DNA of 5,615 bases, taken from IMG/VR virus record IMGVR_UViG_2606217104_000006, positions 1-5,615 of that record; one strand, 5' to 3'. This DNA is from a virus (Duplodnaviria > Heunggongvirae > Uroviricota > Caudoviricetes). Under the pieces are notes generated by a model. The model made no database searches. It had not been told where the DNA came from and saw only the letters and a program-made list of their open reading frames with translations. Positions 1 through 5,615 of this stretch are shown in pieces. A program made the position numbers and the translations under genes. Numbering within the stretch: the stretch's first letter is position 1; each line of letters starts with the position of its first letter.

Positions 1-589
1 CGAGCTGTACCGGGATGGCCGGATAACGGAAGCCGCCTGTTGGGCTCACGCCCGCCGTAAAATCCACGATGTGCACGTTCGCACCCCGTCAGCCCTGACG
101 GAGGAAGCGCTGAAACGGATCGGCGAACTGTACGCCATCGAGGCAGAGATAAGGGGAATGACGGCGGAGCAGCGCCTTGCCGAACGTCAGTTGAAAACGA
201 AACCGCTGCTGAAATCCCTGGAAAGCTGGCTGCGTGAAAAGATGAAAACCCTGTCGCGACACTCAGAACTGGCGAAAGCGTTCGCATACGCCCTGAACCA
301 GTGGCCGGCGCTGACGTACTATGCGAACGATGGCTGGGCTGAGGCGGACAATAACATCGCTGAAAATGCGTTGCGGATGGTCAGTCTGGGCCGCAAAAAC
401 TACCTGTTCTTCGGTTCGGATCATGGAGGAGAGCGGGGAGCGCTGCTGTACAGCCTGATCGGGACGTGCAAACTGAACGGAGTGGAGCCAGAAAGCTACC
501 TCCGCTATGTCCTTGACGTCATAGCCGACTGGCCGATAAACCGGGTCGGCGAACTGCTCCCCTGGCGCGTAGCACTGCCGACTGAATAA
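1..589 (+). CDS. IS66-family transposase (TnpC/orf3 type), C-terminal ~195 codons; 5' end lies upstream of the window
   Basis: Open frame enters from the window edge (codon phase from nt 2) and ends at TAA 587-589. The translation contains [12 protein letters not shown] and [71 protein letters not shown], which I recognise as the conserved C-terminal region of IS66-family transposases. Family knowledge only, no search run. Confidence 0.88.
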
Positions 590-626
590 CACATCCCCGT
601 CAATACGGTTCTTGCTGCACGCTTAC
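1..626 (+). mobile_element. Right-hand end of an IS66-family insertion sequence (partial; the rest of the element is upstream of the window)
   Basis: The transposase stop at 589 is followed 37 bp later by a sequence whose reverse complement reads GTAAGCGTGCAGCAAGAACC (nt 626 back to 607). From memory this matches the GTAAGCG-type terminal inverted repeat of IS66-family elements. Immediately after nt 626 the sequence becomes phage tape-measure coding sequence. Confidence 0.75.
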
Positions 627-2079
627 GGCTGAGGCGGGTTCGGTGATCACCCAGTTCAGCCAGGCGCTGGCACAGGGTGTGTTGCGCGGTGAGGAATTTA
701 ATTCGGTCAATGAAAGTGGTGACCGGATCATTCGTGCACTGGCTGCAGGCATGGGCGTGGCCCGTAAAGATCTGAAGGCGATGGCGGACGATGGTCAACT
801 GACGGCGGATAAAGTCGTTCCTGCGTTAATCAGCCAGCTGGAGGTATTGCGTGATGAATACGCGGCCATGCCGGAAACGGTCTCTGACGGGATCACAAAG
901 GTGGAAAACGCCTTTATGGCCTGGGTGGGTGGTGCGAATGAGGCCAGCGGGGTGACGAAAACGCTCTCCGGCGTGCTGAACGGTGTTGCCGGACAGATTG
1001 ATAATGTGGCAACAGCCGTGGGGGCACTGGTTGCCGTCGGGGTTGCCCGGTACTTTGGCAATATGGCCTCCGGAGCGATGTCTGCCACGGCAGGACTTGT
1101 GACGGCTGCACGTAATGAAGTTGCACTGGCGGAAGCACAGTTCAGGGGAACGCAGATTGCCACGGCGCGGGCAAGGGCAGCCGTGTACCGTGCTCAGCAG
1201 GCCGTGGCGGCAGCCCGCGGGACGGAGATGCAGATTGCTGCAGAGGCCCGTCTGGCGGCCACACAGGAACGCCTGAACAGAAATATTGCTGCCAGAAGCG
1301 CCGCCCAGAATGCGCTGAACAGTACAACGGCGGTGGGCTCACGTCTGATGAGCGGTGCGCTGGGGCTGGTTGGTGGCGTACCCGGACTGGTGATGCTGGG
1401 GGCTGCAGCATGGTACACGCTGTACCAGAATCAGGAGCAGGCCAGGGAGTCTGCGCGCCAGTATGCACTGACGATAGATGAAATCGCGCATAAAACGCCG
1501 TCAATGTCTCTGCCTGAAGCCTCAGATAATGAAGGACGAACACGGGCGGCGCTGACAGAGCAGAACCGGCTGATTGATGAACAGGCCAGTCGGGTGAAAT
1601 CCCTGCAGGAAAAAATCGCAGGATATCAGTATGTTCTGGCGAACCCGGGCTGGACGACCGGTGACGGATTCATGATAAACCATCTGACATCGGTGAAGAC
1701 CGTAAATGCCCGTTTTCTGGATGCGGTGAATTTTGTGGCGGGCAATCCGGAAGCGGACCCGGAGCAGGAGCTGAGCGACCGCTGGGTGGTGGAGCAGATG
1801 TCAGAGCTGACGGCCATGACAGCCTCGTTTGTGCTGGCAACACCGACGGAGACGGACGGAGCGCTGTTTCCCGGTCGCATTATGCTGGCGAATACCTGTA
1901 TGTGGACCTACCGCTCTGATGAGTGTGGTTACACGGGCGGGGCTGTGGCGGATGAGTTCGATAAACCCACCACCGATATCCGTAAGGACAGATGCAGCAA
2001 GTGCATGCGCGGGTGTGAGATGCGCGGCATGGTGGCTAATTTTGGCGGTTTCCTTTCCATTAACAAACTTTCGCAGTAA
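627..2079 (+). pseudogene. Chimeric tail-gene remnant: tail tape-measure protein N-terminal fragment fused in frame to the C-terminal cysteine-rich domain of minor tail protein L (gpL-like); 5' end interrupted by the IS66 element
   Basis: Continuous ORF (ORF track 643-2079; coding phase is already open from nt 628). The N-terminal part (FSQALAQGVLRGEEFNSVNE...KDLKAMADDGQLTADKVVPALISQLE) resembles the conserved tape-measure N-terminal domain, followed by an Ala-rich coiled-coil region and a hydrophobic Gly-rich segment (LMSGALGLVGGVPGLVMLGAAAWY) typical of tape-measure proteins. From at least nt 1708 (ARFLDAVNFVAGNPEADPEQE...GRIMLANTCMWTYRSDECGY...DRCSKCMRGCEMRGMVANFGGFLSINKLSQ) it matches the C-terminal half of lambda gpL as I recall it, including the conserved Cys cluster. 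The junction lies roughly between nt 1560 and 1700 and cannot be placed exactly by eye. Confidence 0.75.
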
Positions 2080-2087
2080 TGGATTAT

Positions 2088-2112
2088 GCCCACCATCAGG
2101 TGGGTTTTTTGT
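2088..2112 (+). terminator. Rho-independent terminator downstream of the L remnant
   Basis: GC-rich inverted repeat CCCACC (2089-2094) / GGTGGG (2099-2104) with a 4-nt loop ATCA, followed by TTTTTT (2105-2110). The stop codon of the minus-strand Mnt-like gene (TCA at 2096-2098 on plus, read as TGA on minus) lies in the loop. Confidence 0.7.
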
Positions 2113-2470
2113 TGTCATCACCAAGATATTTCTGCTTATATTCCTCTGAAAGAGGAATTGATCTTTCAACCATGCTAATAAGTTTATCTACTTGTTTTTT
2201 CTGTTTTTCTATGATTTCTAAAAGTTGAGGTATAAGTTTTTCATGCTCGCTTTTATCATATTTTCTGTTTATCGCATCTAGTTGTTCTTTAAACTGCTGA
2301 ACGATAGGACCATCCTCCGGCCCAAAATCACGACAAACACGAATCGCCAACTCAAGCAGAGTGACAATCTCAGCATTCATAGAACGATTATTTTGTTTTG
2401 ATGACGCTTCAATTATTTTTTTTAATTCAACAGGAAGCCTAATCCGAAGTTGAGGGTCTTCTCTACTCAT
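2096..2470 (-). CDS. Mnt-like ribbon-helix-helix (Arc/MetJ superfamily) transcriptional repressor with an extended C-terminal coiled-coil region (124 aa)
   Basis: ORF track 2096-2470 minus. The N-terminus MSREDPQLRIRLPVELKKIIEASSKQNNRSMNAEIVTLLELAI has the beta-strand and two-helix pattern, including the N(G/N)RSMN(S/A)E motif, that I recall from P22 Mnt and Arc. The C-terminal half is charged and heptad-like (QQFKEQLDAINRKYDKSEHEKLIPQLLEIIEKQKKQVDKLISMVE), consistent with an oligomerisation coiled coil as in Mnt. It is transcribed divergently from the Arc-like/Ant-like genes. The Shine-Dalgarno is weak. Confidence 0.8.
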   Translation of the reverse strand: MSREDPQLRIRLPVELKKIIEASSKQNNRSMNAEIVTLLELAIRVCRDFGPEDGPIVQQFKEQLDAINRKYDKSEHEKLIPQLLEIIEKQKKQVDKLISMVERSIPLSEEYKQKYLGDDNKKPT

Positions 2471-2507
2471 ACCATTAGTCCAAACAGGAAAAATTCACAA
2501 TAAGTAA

Positions 2508-2536
2508 ATTATGCCCCACGGTGGGGTTGACTTCAA
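2508..2536 (-). promoter_or_regulatory. Predicted sigma70 promoter for the Mnt-like gene (Pmnt-like), arranged back-to-back with the plus-strand promoter
   Basis: On the minus strand: -35 TTGAAG (plus coordinates 2536-2531), 17-bp spacer, -10 CATAAT (plus coordinates 2513-2508). Its -35 overlaps the -35 of the plus-strand promoter by 2 bp, and the 13-bp palindrome 2514-2526 sits in its spacer. Confidence 0.45.
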
Positions 2537-2555
2537 TGACGCACGGTGTGACAAT
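2527..2555 (+). promoter_or_regulatory. Predicted sigma70 promoter for the Arc-like/Ant-like operon (Pant-like)
   Basis: -35 TTGACT (2527-2532), 17-bp spacer, -10 GACAAT (2550-2555) preceded by TG at 2547-2548 (extended -10). The predicted start near 2562 leaves a ~32-nt leader before the AAGGAG Shine-Dalgarno (2583-2588) and ATG 2594. Confidence 0.5.
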
Positions 2556-2593
2556 TTTGATTGCCCCACAGTGAGGCTATTTAAGGAGTGGAG

Positions 2594-2761
2594 ATGGAAA
2601 AAGCAAAAGACATGTATCAACGCAAGGTTCGTTTCCCAGAGGATGTAAGGAAGGCGATTGAAAGAAATGGAGAAAAAGAGTGTCGACAGTTCAACACGGA
2701 ACTTATTTATCAATTGAGAAAAGTGTACGGACTGATTGGAGAGAAGAATGCTAGGACATAA
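2594..2761 (+). CDS. Arc-like ribbon-helix-helix repressor (55 aa); not in the supplied ORF track, presumably below its length cutoff
   Basis: ATG 2594 is preceded by a strong Shine-Dalgarno AAGGAG (2583-2588, 5-nt spacing); TAA at 2759-2761. Translation: MEKAKDMYQRKVRFPEDVRKAIERNGEKECRQFNTELIYQLRKVYGLIGEKNART. The RKVRFPEDV strand followed by two short helices parallels P22 Arc (FNLRWPREV...NGRSVNSEIYQRV, recalled from memory). Small size and position immediately upstream of an antirepressor gene both fit. Confidence 0.7.
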   Translation: MEKAKDMYQRKVRFPEDVRKAIERNGEKECRQFNTELIYQLRKVYGLIGEKNART

Positions 2762-2830
2762 AAATAGCGAAGCCCGACAGTGCGCGAACACAAATCGGGC
2801 TTCTATGTCAGTAACTTCCAAGGAACTAAC
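2762..2830 (-). ncRNA. Predicted sar-like antisense RNA (~68 nt) complementary to the Arc-like/Ant-like intercistronic region and the Ant-like ribosome-binding site
   Basis: Minus-strand promoter with near-consensus elements inside the 5' end of the Ant-like gene (see next feature) predicts a start near nt 2830. A 9-bp perfect stem (2769-2777 / 2795-2803, 17-nt loop) is followed on the minus strand by GCUAUUUUUAU (plus 2768-2759), a plausible intrinsic terminator ending just after the Arc-like stop codon. The transcript would be antisense to the Ant-like Shine-Dalgarno (2819-2825). Confidence 0.4.
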
Positions 2831-2833
2831 GAA

Positions 2834-3754
2834 ATGAGTATAGCAACAGCGGTATCTACTATCAACGTGCCATTCCACGGCGCAGAGCTTTATGTCGTCA
2901 ATCACAACGGCGAACCGTACACCCCAATGAAACCTATCGTTGAGGGAATGGGTATGGATTGGGCTTCACAGTTTACAAAGTTAAAACAAAGATTTGCTAA
3001 AGGTATTGTGGAAATCGCAATACCTTCAGTTGGCGGTATGCAGACCATGATTTGCCTTGCTTTGCGTAAACTGAATGGTTGGCTCCAAACCATCAGTCCT
3101 AACAAAGTCCGCCCTGAAATCCGCGAGAAGGTAATCCAGTATCAGGAAGAGTGTGACGATGTGCTCTACGAGTACTGGACTAAAGGCCATGTGATTAACC
3201 CGCGCAAAGCTAAAAAGGCATTGCTGGGGAAAATCACCACTGAACAGCAGGAAGCCATTAAACAACTCGTCATGAGTCGCGGTCAGTCTCTGCCAAAAGA
3301 AAAACAGGCGAAGGCGATGATCACCATGTGGTCGTCACTGAAATCCCATTTTGGATGTTCGTACAAAGAAATTAGTGAGGAGCAGTTTACCGAAGCACTG
3401 TCACTTGCTGCTCGCGTTCCGCTTGAAGGTGAGTTCATTGGCAAACAAGAGAAGAAAACCAACGAGCTTTCTGCAAAAGAAGCAAACAGCCTTGTATGGT
3501 TATGGGATTATGCTAACCGCTCACAGGCATTATTCCGCGAACTGTATCCGGCGCTAAAGCAAATTCAATCGAACTATTCCTGCAGATGCTACGACTACGG
3601 TCATGAGTTCTCGTATGTTATTGGAATGGCGAGAGACGTTTTAATCAATCACACGCGAGATATTGATATTAATGAGCCAGACGGACCAACGAATCTTTCT
3701 GCATGGCTAAGACTTAAGAACAAAGAATTACCTCCTTCACTGCATCACTACTAA
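2834..3754 (+). CDS. Phage antirepressor (P22 Ant-like; P22 antirepressor N-terminal-type domain)
   Basis: ORF track 2780-3754, but the start is more likely ATG 2834, preceded by AAGGAAC (2819-2825); the GTG at 2780 lies inside a hairpin loop and has no Shine-Dalgarno. TAA at 3752-3754. The N-terminal region VPFHGAELYVVNHNGEPYTPMKPIVEGMGMDW...RPEIREKVIQYQEECDDVLYEYW matches my recollection of the N-terminal domain of P22-type antirepressors. It sits downstream of an Arc-like gene, as ant does in P22 immI. Confidence 0.72.
   Translation: MSIATAVSTINVPFHGAELYVVNHNGEPYTPMKPIVEGMGMDWASQFTKLKQRFAKGIVEIAIPSVGGMQTMICLALRKLNGWLQTISPNKVRPEIREKVIQYQEECDDVLYEYWTKGHVINPRKAKKALLGKITTEQQEAIKQLVMSRGQSLPKEKQAKAMITMWSSLKSHFGCSYKEISEEQFTEALSLAARVPLEGEFIGKQEKKTNELSAKEANSLVWLWDYANRSQALFRELYPALKQIQSNYSCRCYDYGHEFSYVIGMARDVLINHTRDIDINEPDGPTNLSAWLRLKNKELPPSLHHY
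2837..2865 (-). promoter_or_regulatory. Predicted promoter of the sar-like antisense RNA, located within the first codons of the Ant-like gene
   Basis: Minus-strand -35 TTGATA (plus 2865-2860), exactly 17-bp spacer, -10 TATACT (plus 2842-2837). Both hexamers are 5/6 matches to consensus. Confidence 0.5.
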
Positions 3755-3772
3755 CAGATTGCCAACGAAATG

Positions 3773-3796
3773 ACCCAGCTTCGGCTGGGTTTTTTA
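3773..3796 (+). terminator. Rho-independent terminator downstream of the Ant-like gene
   Basis: 7-bp stem ACCCAGC (3773-3779) / GCTGGGT (3784-3790) with a UUCG tetraloop (3780-3783), followed by TTTTT (3791-3795). Confidence 0.8.
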
Positions 3797-3808
3797 TCAG
3801 GAGTTCTC

Positions 3809-4546
3809 ATGCTCTATAGCAATATATTGGCGCACGCCCGGCGATGTGCGCCAGCGGAGTCGTGCGGCTTCGTGGTGAGAACGCCGGAGGGGGAAAGATA
3901 TTTTCCCTGCGTGAATATCTCCGGTGAGCCGGAGGATTATTTCCGGATGGCTCCGGAGGACTGGCTGCAGGCCAAAATGCAGGGTGAGATTGTGGCGCTG
4001 GTCCACAGCCACCCCGGTGGCCTGCCCTGGCTGAGCGAGGCCGACCGGCGGCTGCAGATAAAAAGTGCACTGTCCTGGTGGCTGGTCTGCCGGGGGGACA
4101 TTCATAAATTCCGCTGTGTGCCACATCTGACAGGACGGCGCTTTGAGCACGGGGTGACGGACTGTTACACGCTGTTCCGGGATGCCTACCATCTGGCGGG
4201 AATTGATATGCCGGATTTTGAGCGTGAGGATGACTGGTGGCGCAACGGTCAGAACCTTTACCTGGACAATATGGCGGTCACCGGCTTTTACCGGGTGCCC
4301 CTGTCCTCTGCACAGGCGGGCGATATCCTGCTGTGCTGCTTTGGCGCATCGGTGGCCAATCATGCCGCCATTTACTGCGGCAACGGTGAACTGCTTCACC
4401 ATCTGCCTGAACAACTGAGTAAACGGGAGAGGTATTCCGAAAAATGGCAACGACGAACGCATTCTGTCTGGCGTCACCGCCACTGGCACGCATCTGCCTT
4501 CACGGGGATTTACAACGATTTGGCCGCCGCCTCAGCCTGTACGTGA
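3809..4546 (+). CDS. K: Tail tip assembly protein K (lambda gpK-like; JAB/MPN plus NlpC/P60 domains)
   Basis: ATG 3809 with AGGAG (3799-3803) 5 nt upstream. The ORF-track start at 3770 would place the first 13 codons inside the preceding terminator hairpin, so it is rejected. The translation contains the JAMM-type motif VHSHPGGLPWLSEADR and an NlpC/P60-like Cys/His pair (GVTDCYTLF ... NHAAIYCG), and is collinear with lambda K as I recall it (ILAHARRCAPAESCGFVV...). Confidence 0.88.
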   Translation: MLYSNILAHARRCAPAESCGFVVRTPEGERYFPCVNISGEPEDYFRMAPEDWLQAKMQGEIVALVHSHPGGLPWLSEADRRLQIKSALSWWLVCRGDIHKFRCVPHLTGRRFEHGVTDCYTLFRDAYHLAGIDMPDFEREDDWWRNGQNLYLDNMAVTGFYRVPLSSAQAGDILLCCFGASVANHAAIYCGNGELLHHLPEQLSKRERYSEKWQRRTHSVWRHRHWHASAFTGIYNDLAAASACT

Positions 4547-5124
4547 ACACGGCAGCGGAAGCCATCCGGGCGCTGTCGTTACAGGTGCCGGGATTCCGCC
4601 GTCAGATGAACGAAGGCTGGTACCAGATACGTATTCGCGGTGAGGACACGGCACCGGAGGCGGTGTACGCCCGTCTTCACGAACCTCTGGGTGAGGGGGC
4701 GGTCATCCATATTGTGCCGCGACTGGCCGGAGCCGGAAAGGGCGGACTGCGGATTGTGCTGGGGGCGGCAGCCATCGTGGGCTCTTTCTTCACTGCCGGA
4801 GGCTCGATGGCGTTATGGGGTACAGCCCTGAGTGCCGGTGGTTTTTCTGCCACCACGATGCTGTTTTCACTGGGTGCCAGCATGATTCTGGGTGGTGTGG
4901 CCCAGATGCTGGCACCGAAGGCAAAAACACCGGATTACCGCGCAACGGATAACGGTAAACAGAACACGTATTTTTCGTCACTGGACAATATGATTGCCCA
5001 GGGTAACCCGATGCCGGTGCCTTACGGGGAAATGCTGGTTGGTTCACGACGGATATCCCAGGACATCAGCACCCGTGATGAAGGCGGGGGCGGAAAGGTC
5101 GTGGTTATCGGGCGGCAGGGGTAA
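4444..5124 (+). CDS. I: Tail tip assembly protein I (lambda gpI-like)
   Basis: ATG 4444, TAA 5122-5124. The translation (ASPPLARICLHGDLQRFGRR...VIHIVPRLAGAGKGG...GASMILGGVAQMLAPKAKTP...GKQNTYFSSLDNMIAQGNPMPVPYGEM) closely parallels lambda gpI as I recall it. Its 5' end overlaps the 3' end of K by 103 bp in a different frame; I recall a K/I overlap of about this size in lambda. Confidence 0.9.
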   Translation: MATTNAFCLASPPLARICLHGDLQRFGRRLSLYVNTAAEAIRALSLQVPGFRRQMNEGWYQIRIRGEDTAPEAVYARLHEPLGEGAVIHIVPRLAGAGKGGLRIVLGAAAIVGSFFTAGGSMALWGTALSAGGFSATTMLFSLGASMILGGVAQMLAPKAKTPDYRATDNGKQNTYFSSLDNMIAQGNPMPVPYGEMLVGSRRISQDISTRDEGGGGKVVVIGRQG

Positions 5125-5155
5125 AAAGAATAAAAAAATCCCGCAGAGTTGCGGA
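5125..5155 (-). terminator. Possible minus-strand intrinsic terminator in the I-J spacer
   Basis: Short GC-rich stem CCGCA (5141-5145) / TGCGG (5150-5154) with loop GAGT. On the minus strand it is followed by a run of 7 U (plus-strand A-run 5132-5138) and further U-rich sequence. The stem is only 5 bp, so this is tentative. Confidence 0.35.
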
Positions 5156-5294
5156 ACTGAGGGAGCGTTACGAAGATTAAGTGTAAGGAATTATTCTTAT
5201 GTCACGACAAAAAACATTAACGCAGAGAAATTATTAGCACCACAGTCAGTTTGTAAAAATGTGAAGATATTCAGAAGTTTTATTCAGTGATGAT

Positions 5295-5326
5295 ACAGGC
5301 ATCCTCAGGGATGCCTGTTGTTTTTG
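5295..5326 (+). terminator. Strong rho-independent terminator 34 bp upstream of the J start codon
   Basis: Perfect 10-bp stem ACAGGCATCC (5295-5304) / GGATGCCTGT (5309-5318) with loop TCAG, followed by TGTTTTT (5319-5325). Confidence 0.7.
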
Positions 5327-5359
5327 TGCGTAACAGTTATCACAGTAAAGGGTGAGACA

Positions 5360-5615
5360 ATGGGCAAAGGTGGCGGCAAGGCGCACACACCGCGCGAGGC
5401 GAAGGACAATCTCAAATCCACGCAGATGATGAGTGTGATTGATGCGATTGGTGAGGGACCGATAGAAGGCCCGGTGAAAGGCCTGCAGAGTATTCTGGTG
5501 AACAAAACCCCGCTGACGGACACGGACGGTAATCCCGTGATACACGGTGTGACGGCGGTCTGGCGCGCCGGGGAGCAGGAGCAGACACCACCGGAAGGCT
5601 TTGAGTCCTCCGGAG
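5360..5615 (+). CDS. J: Host specificity / tail tip central fibre protein J (lambda gpJ-like), N-terminal 85 codons; continues beyond the window
   Basis: ATG 5360 preceded by AAAGGGTGAG. Translation MGKGGGKAHTPREAKDNLKSTQMMSVIDAIGEGPIEGPVKGLQSILVNKTPLTDTDGNPVIHGVTAVWRAGEQEQTPPEGFESSG closely matches the N-terminus of lambda J as I recall it (MGKG..KGHTPREAKDNLKSTQ...GPIEGPV...RAGEQEQTPPEGFESSG). Open to the window end. Confidence 0.92.
   Translation, partial: MGKGGGKAHTPREAKDNLKSTQMMSVIDAIGEGPIEGPVKGLQSILVNKTPLTDTDGNPVIHGVTAVWRAGEQEQTPPEGFESSG

Follow-up and report, generated by a model that had tools for sequence, protein, structure and literature searches.

The region around the antirepressor gene ant in the stretch of DNA analyzed here (the window, 5,615 bp) is most probably, with a probability of about 0.8, an ordinary "ant moron", that is, a P22 immI-type secondary-immunity cassette located in the late operon between the tail genes L and K, recently acquired by a grounded prophage that was itself freshly broken. 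The window is a complete contig of the draft assembly of E. coli 3-267-03_S1_C3, in which 5.6 kb of prophage are visible. This reading builds on the gene content, homology, architecture and distribution of the cassette, on its sharp exchange boundaries and on the lack of point-mutational decay in its neighbors. The first-pass annotation of the same DNA had instead taken the preservation of an antirepressor in a tail-defective prophage as a sign of selection for a function in trans, either cross-induction or a role in defense or anti-defense.

Organization of the cassette and encoded proteins

The elements of the cassette follow the order mnt-like gene, divergent control region, arc-like gene, sar-like antisense RNA, ant and terminator, which matches the annotated immI map of P22 (Table 1). 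Together with the reading frame of ant and its Pfam matches, this comparison bears out the earlier view that Ant belongs to an intact immI-like module. The ribosome-binding site, promoters and terminators ascribed to the module are likewise present as predicted sequence features.

Table 1. Features of the window and the evidence used to assign them.
Feature	Positions	Strand	Evidence or remarks
IS66-family element, right end	1..623	+	Pfam DDE_Tnp_IS66 and DDE_Tnp_IS66_C
HK97-type tape-measure gene (H), internal fragment	624..1705	+	Pfam TMP_3 and Phage_HK97_TLTM
Minor tail protein L, C-terminal part, codons ~109-232	1706..2079	+	Pfam Phage_tail_L, profile positions 77-206 of 206, in H::L ORF
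Recently exchanged "ant moron" tract	2050..3812		Segment identities, mismatch maps
Terminator-like hairpin and T-run directly after L stop codon	2088..2112	+	Overlaps 3' end of mnt-like gene
Mnt-like repressor, 124 aa	2096..2470	-	N-terminal ribbon-helix-helix domain, long helical C-terminal extension
Control region	2508..2576		Promoter scan, repeats; between divergent mnt-like and arc-like genes
Arc-like small repressor, 55 aa, first gene of rightward arc-ant transcript	2594..2761	+	PHROG, weak Pfam, position
Predicted sar-like antisense RNA and its promoter	2757..2865	-	Promoter scan, fold, conservation
ant, P22-type antirepressor, 306 aa, intact	2834..3754	+	ATG 2834 to TAA 3754, Pfam, PHROG, public gene call
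Intrinsic terminator after ant, GACCCAGC-TTCG-GCTGGGTT then TTTTAT	3772..3798	+	Hairpin search
Tail tip protein K (JAB/MPN and NlpC/P60), 245 aa, intact	3809..4546	+	Profile matches, gene call
Tail assembly protein I, 193 aa, intact	4543..5124	+	Profile matches, gene call
Host-specificity gene J, 5' end, open up to contig end	5360..5615	+	Gene call, comparison with relatives

The ant reading frame has no internal stops, is preceded by the ribosome-binding site AAGGAA and has the coordinates given by the public gene call for this contig. Its ATG start is favored by the alignment with P22 Ant as well as by that gene call; GTG 2780 was considered as a start (324-aa ORF) and rejected, being located inside the arc-ant terminator hairpin and without a ribosome-binding site. 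The product matches the Pfam domains P22_AR_N (9.4e-45, 151.9 bits, cut-off 30.7) and P22_AR_C (3.8e-29, 101 bits, cut-off 22.4) and the PHROG family "anti-repressor Ant" (4.7e-97). It aligns end to end with P22 Ant over 309 positions, 173 of them identical (56%, E = 1e-116), and the C-terminal part from about residue 186 is nearly identical. Both Pfam domains and the full-length similarity identify the predicted protein as a genuine member of the P22 antirepressor family. Related homologue clusters number 4,666, and the matches listed, best scorers first, are all full length (302-394 aa). No relative of Ant was found among solved structures, and NCBIfam returned no family match for Ant or the Arc-like protein.

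The Mnt-like repressor matches Pfam Arc (3e-7, 30.6 bits, above the cut-off of 20.4) and, among solved structures, best matches P22 Mnt (1MNT, residues 3-43, E = 0.0015). In a pairwise BLASTP comparison it shows 33% identity and 74% positives with P22 Mnt over 43 aa (E = 4e-10), the similarity being confined to the N-terminal 43 aa. The Arc-like protein reaches 19.1 bits against Pfam Arc, under the 20.4 cut-off, and matches the PHROG family "Arc-like repressor" (1.3e-5); it shares 33% identity with P22 Arc over 40 aa, and its size and position fit P22 arc. Its only matches among solved structures are designed proteins, with no solved Arc among them. Identical copies of the two proteins occur on 351 contigs (Mnt-like, named "Arc family DNA-binding protein") and 499 contigs (Arc-like). 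The antirepressor and both its regulators are already known: hundreds of contigs in public databases carry them under the names "phage antirepressor Ant" and "Arc family DNA-binding protein". GenBank records also annotate the position of the cassette within the tail operon for Stx and O157 phages.

Control region, predicted antisense RNA and terminators

Two promoter-like sites are placed back to back in the control region, one rightward (TTGACT-17-GACAAT, 2527-2555) and one leftward (TTGAAG-17-CATAAT, 2536-2508). Both are overlapped by three operator-like repeats of 15 bp, located 25 bp apart (2512-2526, 2537-2551 and 2562-2576), with the core CCACGGTGG / CCACAGTG. This putative operator core corresponds to the center of the annotated P22 mnt operator GGTCCACGGTGGACC, and the motif CCACRGTG is present, within the window, in the control region only.

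A further promoter is predicted on the opposite strand in the first codons of ant (TTGATA-17-TATACT, 2865-2837; 10/12 matches, extended TG). The predicted antisense transcript would extend from about 2830 to about 2757, span the ant ribosome-binding site and form two hairpins followed by a T-run, with a calculated fold of -28.1 kcal/mol (z = -4.3). Its -10 element and stem are conserved, with compensatory changes, across six cassettes, and its geometry matches that of the annotated P22 sar. The Rfam model RF00262 (sar), which recovered P22 sar with 97.8 bits as a positive control, gave no match in the whole window at E <= 1 nor in a 300-bp slice at E <= 10; therefore, a shared sar architecture is claimed here and membership in RF00262 is not. 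Downstream of ant, the 54-bp end segment that holds the terminator (3755-3808) is 98-100% identical even in O157-type cassettes, and the match of the ant 3' flank with phage CUS-3 reaches about position 3795.

No LexA box (CTGT-N8-ACAG, one mismatch allowed) occurs in positions 2080-3808, so that SOS control of the Gifsy kind is rejected and the Gifsy parallel drawn in the first-pass annotation fails at the level of regulation, control here being of Mnt/Arc type. Since the cassette has no LexA box and the Mnt-like repressor is intact, Ant is expected to be off in the lysogen, and judging from P22 it is probably transcriptionally silent in this prophage. By analogy with P22, infection would open the rightward promoter for a brief burst of Arc and Ant, and Ant would bind CI/C2-type repressors non-covalently and inactivate them, and this would extend to the repressors of heteroimmune prophages resident in the cell. 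Arc would next close the promoter, and the antisense RNA would mask the ribosome-binding site of ant. Once lysogeny is established, the Mnt-like repressor, bound to the CCACGGTGG operators, would hold ant off and could likewise silence incoming copies of the cassette. We infer these biochemical steps, as well as the silence of Ant, from homology with P22.

Lesions in the tail region

The tail region is structurally broken, as the earlier description had it, by an IS66-family element in H and by an H::L fusion from which M is gone. The IS66-family element comprises the end of the transposase ORF (to 589), which encodes the C-terminal part of the protein, followed by the terminal inverted repeat ending ...GCACGCTTAC, shares 86.7% identity with ISEc8 of locus L002, and is directly abutted by tape-measure homology from 624 onwards. 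The H fragment corresponds to codons ~167-528 of a 1080-aa homologue (coordinates mapped on L002) and is 96.6-99.7% identical to intact tape-measure genes. It is joined to L at 1705/1706 within a fusion ORF of 478 aa (643-2079). Compared with the intact relative L002, 2,319 bp are gone, comprising all of M and the remaining parts of H and L, and the junction is clean, in frame and without microhomology.

The junction is supported by one draft assembly, and the fusion protein was found on a single contig, that of E. coli 3-267-03_S1_C3. None of the 5,426 complete E. coli genomes searched has a place covering at least 80% of window positions 560-2120; the best joined match to the H::L region, in O39:NM F8704-2 (80%), is a different H-L deletion. 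Both lesions, the IS66 insertion and the 2.3-kb H-M-L deletion, are private to strain 3-267-03_S1_C3. The tail genes are similar to those of STEC prophages.

Spread and recent exchange of the cassette

Patterns of sequence identity set the cassette apart from the genes on either side of it. Over the ~1.76 kb of the exchanged tract, the window shows 0-1 mismatches against the copies in five realigned loci, whereas the flanking tail genes are 70-90% identical; mismatch density is ~27 per 100 bp outside the tract and ~0 inside. The contrast between 0-1 base differences and flanks of 70-90% identity indicates that the tract was recently exchanged and not anciently retained. Its left edge is fixed at 2050; on the right it ends within the 5' portion of K at a point that varies, mismatches beginning at 3813, 3936 or 4036.

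The identical Ant protein is encoded on 118 contigs, and in 10 of the 10 loci listed it is accompanied between L and K by the same 124-aa and 55-aa neighbors. In those ten loci, gene calls are full length for H (853-1070 aa), M, L (232 aa), K, I and J. Matches to the cassette were recovered in 1,183 of 5,426 complete E. coli genomes, and related cassettes occupy the same L-K slot in the Stx-converting phages 2851, 1717 and YYZ-2008 and also in O157 prophages. The cassette type of the window occurs in non-O157 E. coli, in TMP_2-type and HK97-type tail backgrounds alike. E. coli lambdoid phages commonly carry such a cassette between L and K.

A selective sweep still under way, carrying one immI specificity through the lambdoid prophages of E. 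coli, could also account for the near-identity across tail backgrounds diverged by 10-30%, with grounded prophages acting as reservoirs. Their Mnt would then guard the lysogen against Ant-carrying invaders, and any de-repression of their Ant would lead to cross-induction of the other prophages in the cell, Stx phages among them. Such a scenario is regarded as improbable.

Origin of the intact antirepressor gene

The preservation of ant does not stand as a sign of selection, given the identical cassette in prophages with complete tails, the recency of the tract and the private nature of the defect. A comparison with decaying tail neighbors had been put forward to check that claim; K, I, the 5' part of J and the H::L ORF are all open, with no stops or frameshifts, and hence there is no differential decay relative to the cassette. 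The alignments hold no substitutions from which purifying selection along the defective lineage could be measured, the defect being found on one contig and the cassette copies differing at 0-1 positions. Between the cassette and its closest copies there are no non-synonymous differences and at most one synonymous difference, so that a lineage-specific dN/dS is not computable and values apply at the family level only. These are 0.18-0.32 for ant, 0.11-0.17 for K and 0.17 for I, according to which ant appears to be under no special constraint relative to K and I. Since the identical cassette occupies the same slot in many prophages with complete tails, its survival here is ordinary and provides no evidence for a new role. 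The gene is intact because it was recently acquired, and nothing has had time to happen to the cassette. More generally, an intact accessory gene beside a broken neighbor is not evidence of selection if the breakage is strain-private and the cassette recently exchanged.

Of the earlier proposal of a trans-acting inducer, the capacity to act in trans remains plausible by homology with P22 Ant, and the selection for it does not. Selection by the host or by co-resident phages to keep Ant in the grounded prophage, as a cross-inducer, anti-immunity or defense-related factor, is considered very unlikely. It would agree with the intactness of Ant and its regulators, with the reported action of P22 Ant on heterologous repressors and of Gifsy antirepressors on co-resident prophages (according to PMC3121763), and with the STEC-like tail genes, STEC prophages typically sharing their host with several lambdoid prophages. 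Also, the presence of two independent lesions in the same tail region suggests a prophage grounded some time ago, and host-level selection invisible to sequence comparison may have acted since then. Yet the identical cassette occurs with complete tail gene sets, the neighbors are just as free of point mutations, the defect is confined to a single draft contig and a tail-deleted relative (L003) carries no cassette, while with zero divergence selection is not measurable. The intact Mnt and the missing LexA box leave no obvious signal for de-repression, and a role in defense or anti-defense gained no support, with no PADLOC defense-system match for Ant, the Arc-like or the Mnt-like protein. A host benefit, if any, might come from the Mnt-like repressor, which, if constitutive, would shut off ant transcription in superinfecting phages with the same cassette and shield resident prophages from Ant-mediated induction (immI-type immunity), ant merely hitch-hiking. 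The mnt-like gene is intact, has its own leftward promoter-like site and faces putative operators that overlap the ant promoter; the abundance of both identical repressors in E. coli (on the 351 and 499 contigs above) makes encounters plausible, and phage L has an mnt-like gene without ant (PMC8022706). This benefit is nonetheless unlikely: its selection signal is likewise not measurable, recency by itself accounts for retention, and the C-terminal half of the protein is unrelated to P22 Mnt.

The lesion itself could be questioned, the H::L fusion being in this case a short-read assembly artifact among near-identical lambdoid prophages and the prophage perhaps not tail-defective in that way. 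The window is a whole contig ending in repeats (IS and J), its junction shows no microhomology, the fusion protein is on no other contig, and no complete E. coli genome has both fragments so arranged. Against this, the junction is clean and in frame, genuine H-L deletions of a similar kind occur in complete genomes (e.g., O39:NM F8704-2), the sibling isolate 3-267-03_S1_C1 has a 5,728-bp contig with the same adjacent gene call, and the IS in the tape-measure gene would inactivate the tail regardless. An artifact is therefore held to be highly improbable, and the recent acquisition of an ordinary ant moron by a freshly broken prophage is the reading retained.

Comparison with known systems

Modules of the immI type have been studied in P22 since the 1970s, and the ability of P22 Ant to act in trans on foreign repressors is textbook knowledge. 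The window resembles P22 immI (mnt, Pmnt/Pant, arc, sar, ant) in gene order and orientation, in the N-terminal ribbon-helix-helix domain of Mnt and the operator core CCACGGTGG, in the predicted antisense promoter within the first ant codons with a predicted two-hairpin RNA over the ribosome-binding site, and in the terminator after ant and the placement of the module inside the late operon. It differs in belonging to a long-tailed lambda/HK97-type siphovirus, with the slot between L and K versus gene 16 and tailspike gene 9 in P22. Also, the Mnt-like protein (124 aa) is longer than P22 Mnt (83 aa) and has an unrelated C-terminal half, the operator-like repeats number three where P22 has one Omnt and one Oarc, and the promoters lie back to back, whereas those of P22 overlap fully. 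The similarity of the Arc-like protein is only marginal, and the antisense RNA is missed by the Rfam sar model.

P22 Ant is reported to inactivate the repressors of phages L, lambda and 21 in addition to that of P22 itself (Susskind and Botstein 1975, as cited in PMC3121763). The Gifsy/Fels antirepressors of Salmonella are LexA-controlled and SOS-responsive (Lemire et al. 2011, PMC3121763). They share with the window the concept of one prophage's antirepressor acting on the repressors of co-resident prophages; in contrast, the Ant of the window belongs to the P22_AR family and is under Mnt/Arc-type control.

Villafane et al. (2008, PMC2629481) described the "ant moron" for P22-like phages as a part of the late operon with high genetic flux, a variable, independently expressed gene set that often includes an ant homologue and is exchanged between phages. 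The sharp identity boundaries of the window's cassette represent the same behavior, although the concept comes from short-tailed P22-like phages and the cassette is found here in a lambda-type tail operon. Phage CUS-3 shares the ant 3' flank with the window, and "boundary sequences" are annotated there in CUS-3.

Ant morons in polylysogenic STEC could couple the induction of several prophages, Stx phages included. The L-K cassettes of the Stx/O157 phages (2851, 1717, YYZ-2008 and O157:H7 prophages) resemble that of the window in their slot, in a small divergent repressor and in a small upstream gene. The regulatory halves (mnt-like gene, control region and arc-like gene) are without detectable DNA similarity, their proteins being 21-32% identical, whereas the 16 bp after L match at 15 of 16 positions, the 54 bp before K are as conserved as noted above, and the Ant proteins are 87% identical.

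Organization of the contig

The window is the whole of contig JNME01000105.1 (5,615 bp), from assembly GCA_000700085.1 of Escherichia coli 3-267-03_S1_C3, and the view of the prophage is limited to these 5.6 kb. The contig ends inside an IS66-family element, the exact type and left junction of which lie beyond it. This element, only 86.7% identical to ISEc8, occupies the tape-measure gene (H) and not the I-J spacer, where a copy of ISEc8 is found in eight complete genomes, of which seven are O157:H7 (about 11000-13440 in the intact relative L002). In one complete genome, MINF_7C, an ISEc22-family element adjoins a tape-measure gene, the joined match being 95.6% identical. The spacer itself is AT-rich and is missing from lambda-type relatives.

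Coordinates of the features of the contig
Feature	Position	Remarks
IS66-family element, right end	1-623	Transposase C-terminus (Pfam DDE_Tnp_IS66 and DDE_Tnp_IS66_C)
HK97-type tape-measure gene, internal piece	624-1705	Codons ~167-528 of a 1080-aa homologue
Minor tail protein L, C-terminal part	1706-2079	Codons ~109-232
Cassette	2080-3808	1.7 kb
Operator-like repeats	2512-2576	TGCCCCACGGTGGGG, TGACGCACGGTGTGA, TGCCCCACAGTGAGG; 15 bp each, exactly 25 bp apart
Predicted antisense RNA with promoter	2757-2865	Minus strand; RNA ~70 nt
ant	2834-3754	Intact, 306 aa
Tail gene K	3809-4546	
Tail gene I	4543-5124	
I-J intergenic region	5125-5359	Hairpin and T-run at its end (~5291-5330)
J start	5360-5615	

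The mechanical ORF list opens K at ATG 3770, which falls within the terminator hairpin of ant; homology supports ATG 3809, which has AGGAG as its ribosome-binding site. The ant terminator therefore sits between ant and K, within the late operon, so that an antiterminated polymerase must read through it.

The antirepressor cassette

The first-pass annotation described an intact, immI-like Ant module beside damaged tail genes, and on both counts it was right. The antirepressor contains both P22 antirepressor halves (Pfam P22_AR_N, 9.4e-45; P22_AR_C, 3.8e-29), matches the PHROG family 'anti-repressor Ant' at 4.7e-97 and can be aligned with P22 Ant over the full length (56% identity, E 1e-116), the C-terminal part being nearly identical from about residue 186 onward. 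Its gene is followed by a clean terminator. The divergent ribbon-helix-helix protein encoded upstream (124 aa) scores above the Pfam Arc cut-off, and its top match among solved structures is P22 Mnt (1MNT). The position of arc upstream of ant is occupied by a 55-aa protein with a marginal Arc assignment (Pfam Arc 19.1 bits, under the 20.4 cut-off; PHROG Arc-like 1.3e-5; 33% identity to P22 Arc over 40 aa).

The 117-bp control region has promoter-like sites placed back to back and contains the three operator-like repeats. Their core, CCACGGTGG, coincides with the middle of the mnt operator as annotated in P22, and their core motif CCACRGTG is found nowhere else in the window. In P22 a single Omnt is accompanied by an Oarc of unrelated sequence; here all three repeats share this core, and the division of work between the two small repressors may therefore differ from that in P22.

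A strong antisense promoter (TTGATA-17-TATACT, extended TG) is predicted within the opening codons of ant. The predicted RNA spans the ant ribosome-binding site and would form two hairpins with a T-run after them, which is how P22 sar is laid out. Six divergent cassettes, that of P22 among them, were aligned: neither the -10 element nor the outer terminator stem varies, and compensatory changes are seen in inner pairs. Rfam model RF00262 for sar, which scores P22 sar at 97.8 bits, gave no match to this predicted RNA and thus appears too narrow for the versions of sar found in lambdoid prophages.

Distribution and recent exchange of the cassette

The public collection lists the identical 306-aa Ant in 156 blocks. 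All 10 loci shown from these place it in the L-K interval, next to the same 124-aa and 55-aa proteins, and in every one the gene calls for the tape measure (853-1070 aa), M, L (232 aa), K, I and J are full length. Exact copies of Ant, the 124-aa protein and the 55-aa protein are present on 118, 351 and 499 contigs, respectively, and the cassette is matched in 1,183 of 5,426 complete E. coli genomes. Stx phage 2851 and O157:H7 prophages have a cassette in the same L-K slot, and Stx phages 1717 and YYZ-2008 contain ant-matching DNA. In E. coli EC12 (NZ_CP070229.1, locus L016, 3017-5102) this slot holds a 269-aa LexA-family protein in place of the Mnt-like repressor, with a 95% identical ant downstream, an arrangement that could place Ant under SOS/self-cleavage control.

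Recombination boundaries are very sharp. Against five loci (L004, L006, L008, L011 and L013) the window shows about 27 mismatches per 100 bp through position 2049, then 0-1 mismatches from 2050 up to the point where the sequences diverge again, which begins with a mismatch at 3813, 3936 or 4036 according to the locus compared. The left edge is at the same place throughout, 30 bp ahead of the L stop codon, and the right edge varies within the initial 230 bp of K. The tail genes closest to those of the window are of the O157/STEC type, and their cassette is a different one, with unrelated mnt and arc; its end segments are nonetheless conserved (15 of 16 bp matched after L; 98-100% identity over the 54 bp before K) and resemble the 'boundary sequences' of the phage CUS-3 annotation. 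The cassette is thus a recently exchanged tract, and it behaves as P22-like phages' 'ant moron' has been described to do (PMC2629481). Since it is near-identical across loci while the relatives with the closest tail genes hold another cassette, the module is, if anything, younger than its flanks at this position.

Tail lesions and selection on ant

The tail damage is real in the contig, the evidence for the H::L junction being a single short-read draft contig; a sibling isolate carries a similar contig, and comparable deletions are present in finished genomes. The junction is in frame, lacks microhomology and reflects a loss of 2,319 bp that takes in the whole of M. The fusion protein was found on this contig alone, and none of the 5,426 complete E. 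coli genomes has H and L fragments arranged as in the window, so the lesion is private. An independent tape-measure-to-L deletion occurs in a closely related prophage (E. coli O39:NM F8704-2, locus L003, 7223-7387; tape-measure fragment 98.3% identical), and H-L deletions therefore seem to recur within this prophage group; in that prophage K is frameshifted and the antirepressor cassette is absent.

That Ant is preserved although the prophage around it is decayed had been taken to suggest selection for a function in trans. In the comparison of module and tail genes among relatives that had been put forward as a check, this is not supported: the identical cassette accompanies complete tail gene sets, and differential decay is absent, K, I, the J start and the H::L fusion ORF being free of stops and frameshifts and the tape-measure fragment sharing as much as 99.7% identity with intact genes. 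Family-level dN/dS values (ant 0.18-0.32, K 0.11-0.17, I 0.17) show ordinary purifying selection on ant, no stronger than on K or I. The proposed defence or anti-defence role found no backing either, as the Ant, Mnt-like and Arc-like proteins had no matches among known defence families.

Proposed mode of action and comparison with known systems

The analysis establishes sequence, architecture and distribution, and the biochemistry is inferred from these. By homology with P22 immI (PMC8022706, PMC11016777, PMC2629481), the rightward promoter of an infecting phage would produce an arc-ant transcript, and Ant would bind and inactivate CI/C2-type repressors. Later, Arc would close the promoter and the antisense RNA would block translation of ant; in the lysogen, Mnt would keep the promoter shut. 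Given that the Mnt-like gene and the operator-like repeats are intact and that a motif search found no LexA box in the cassette, Ant is expected to be off in this prophage. Should the grounded prophage act in trans at all, Mnt is a likelier agent than Ant, through immI-type immunity to incoming copies.

The cassette is an element of an already known kind at an already annotated position. P22 Ant is reported, as cited in PMC3121763, to inactivate not just its own repressor but those of L, lambda and 21 too, so that action in trans is a known property of the family and not a new idea. The parallel drawn with Gifsy antirepressors holds in this respect and fails as to control: those antirepressors are SOS-controlled, whereas the Ant of the window is accompanied by an intact Mnt-like repressor.
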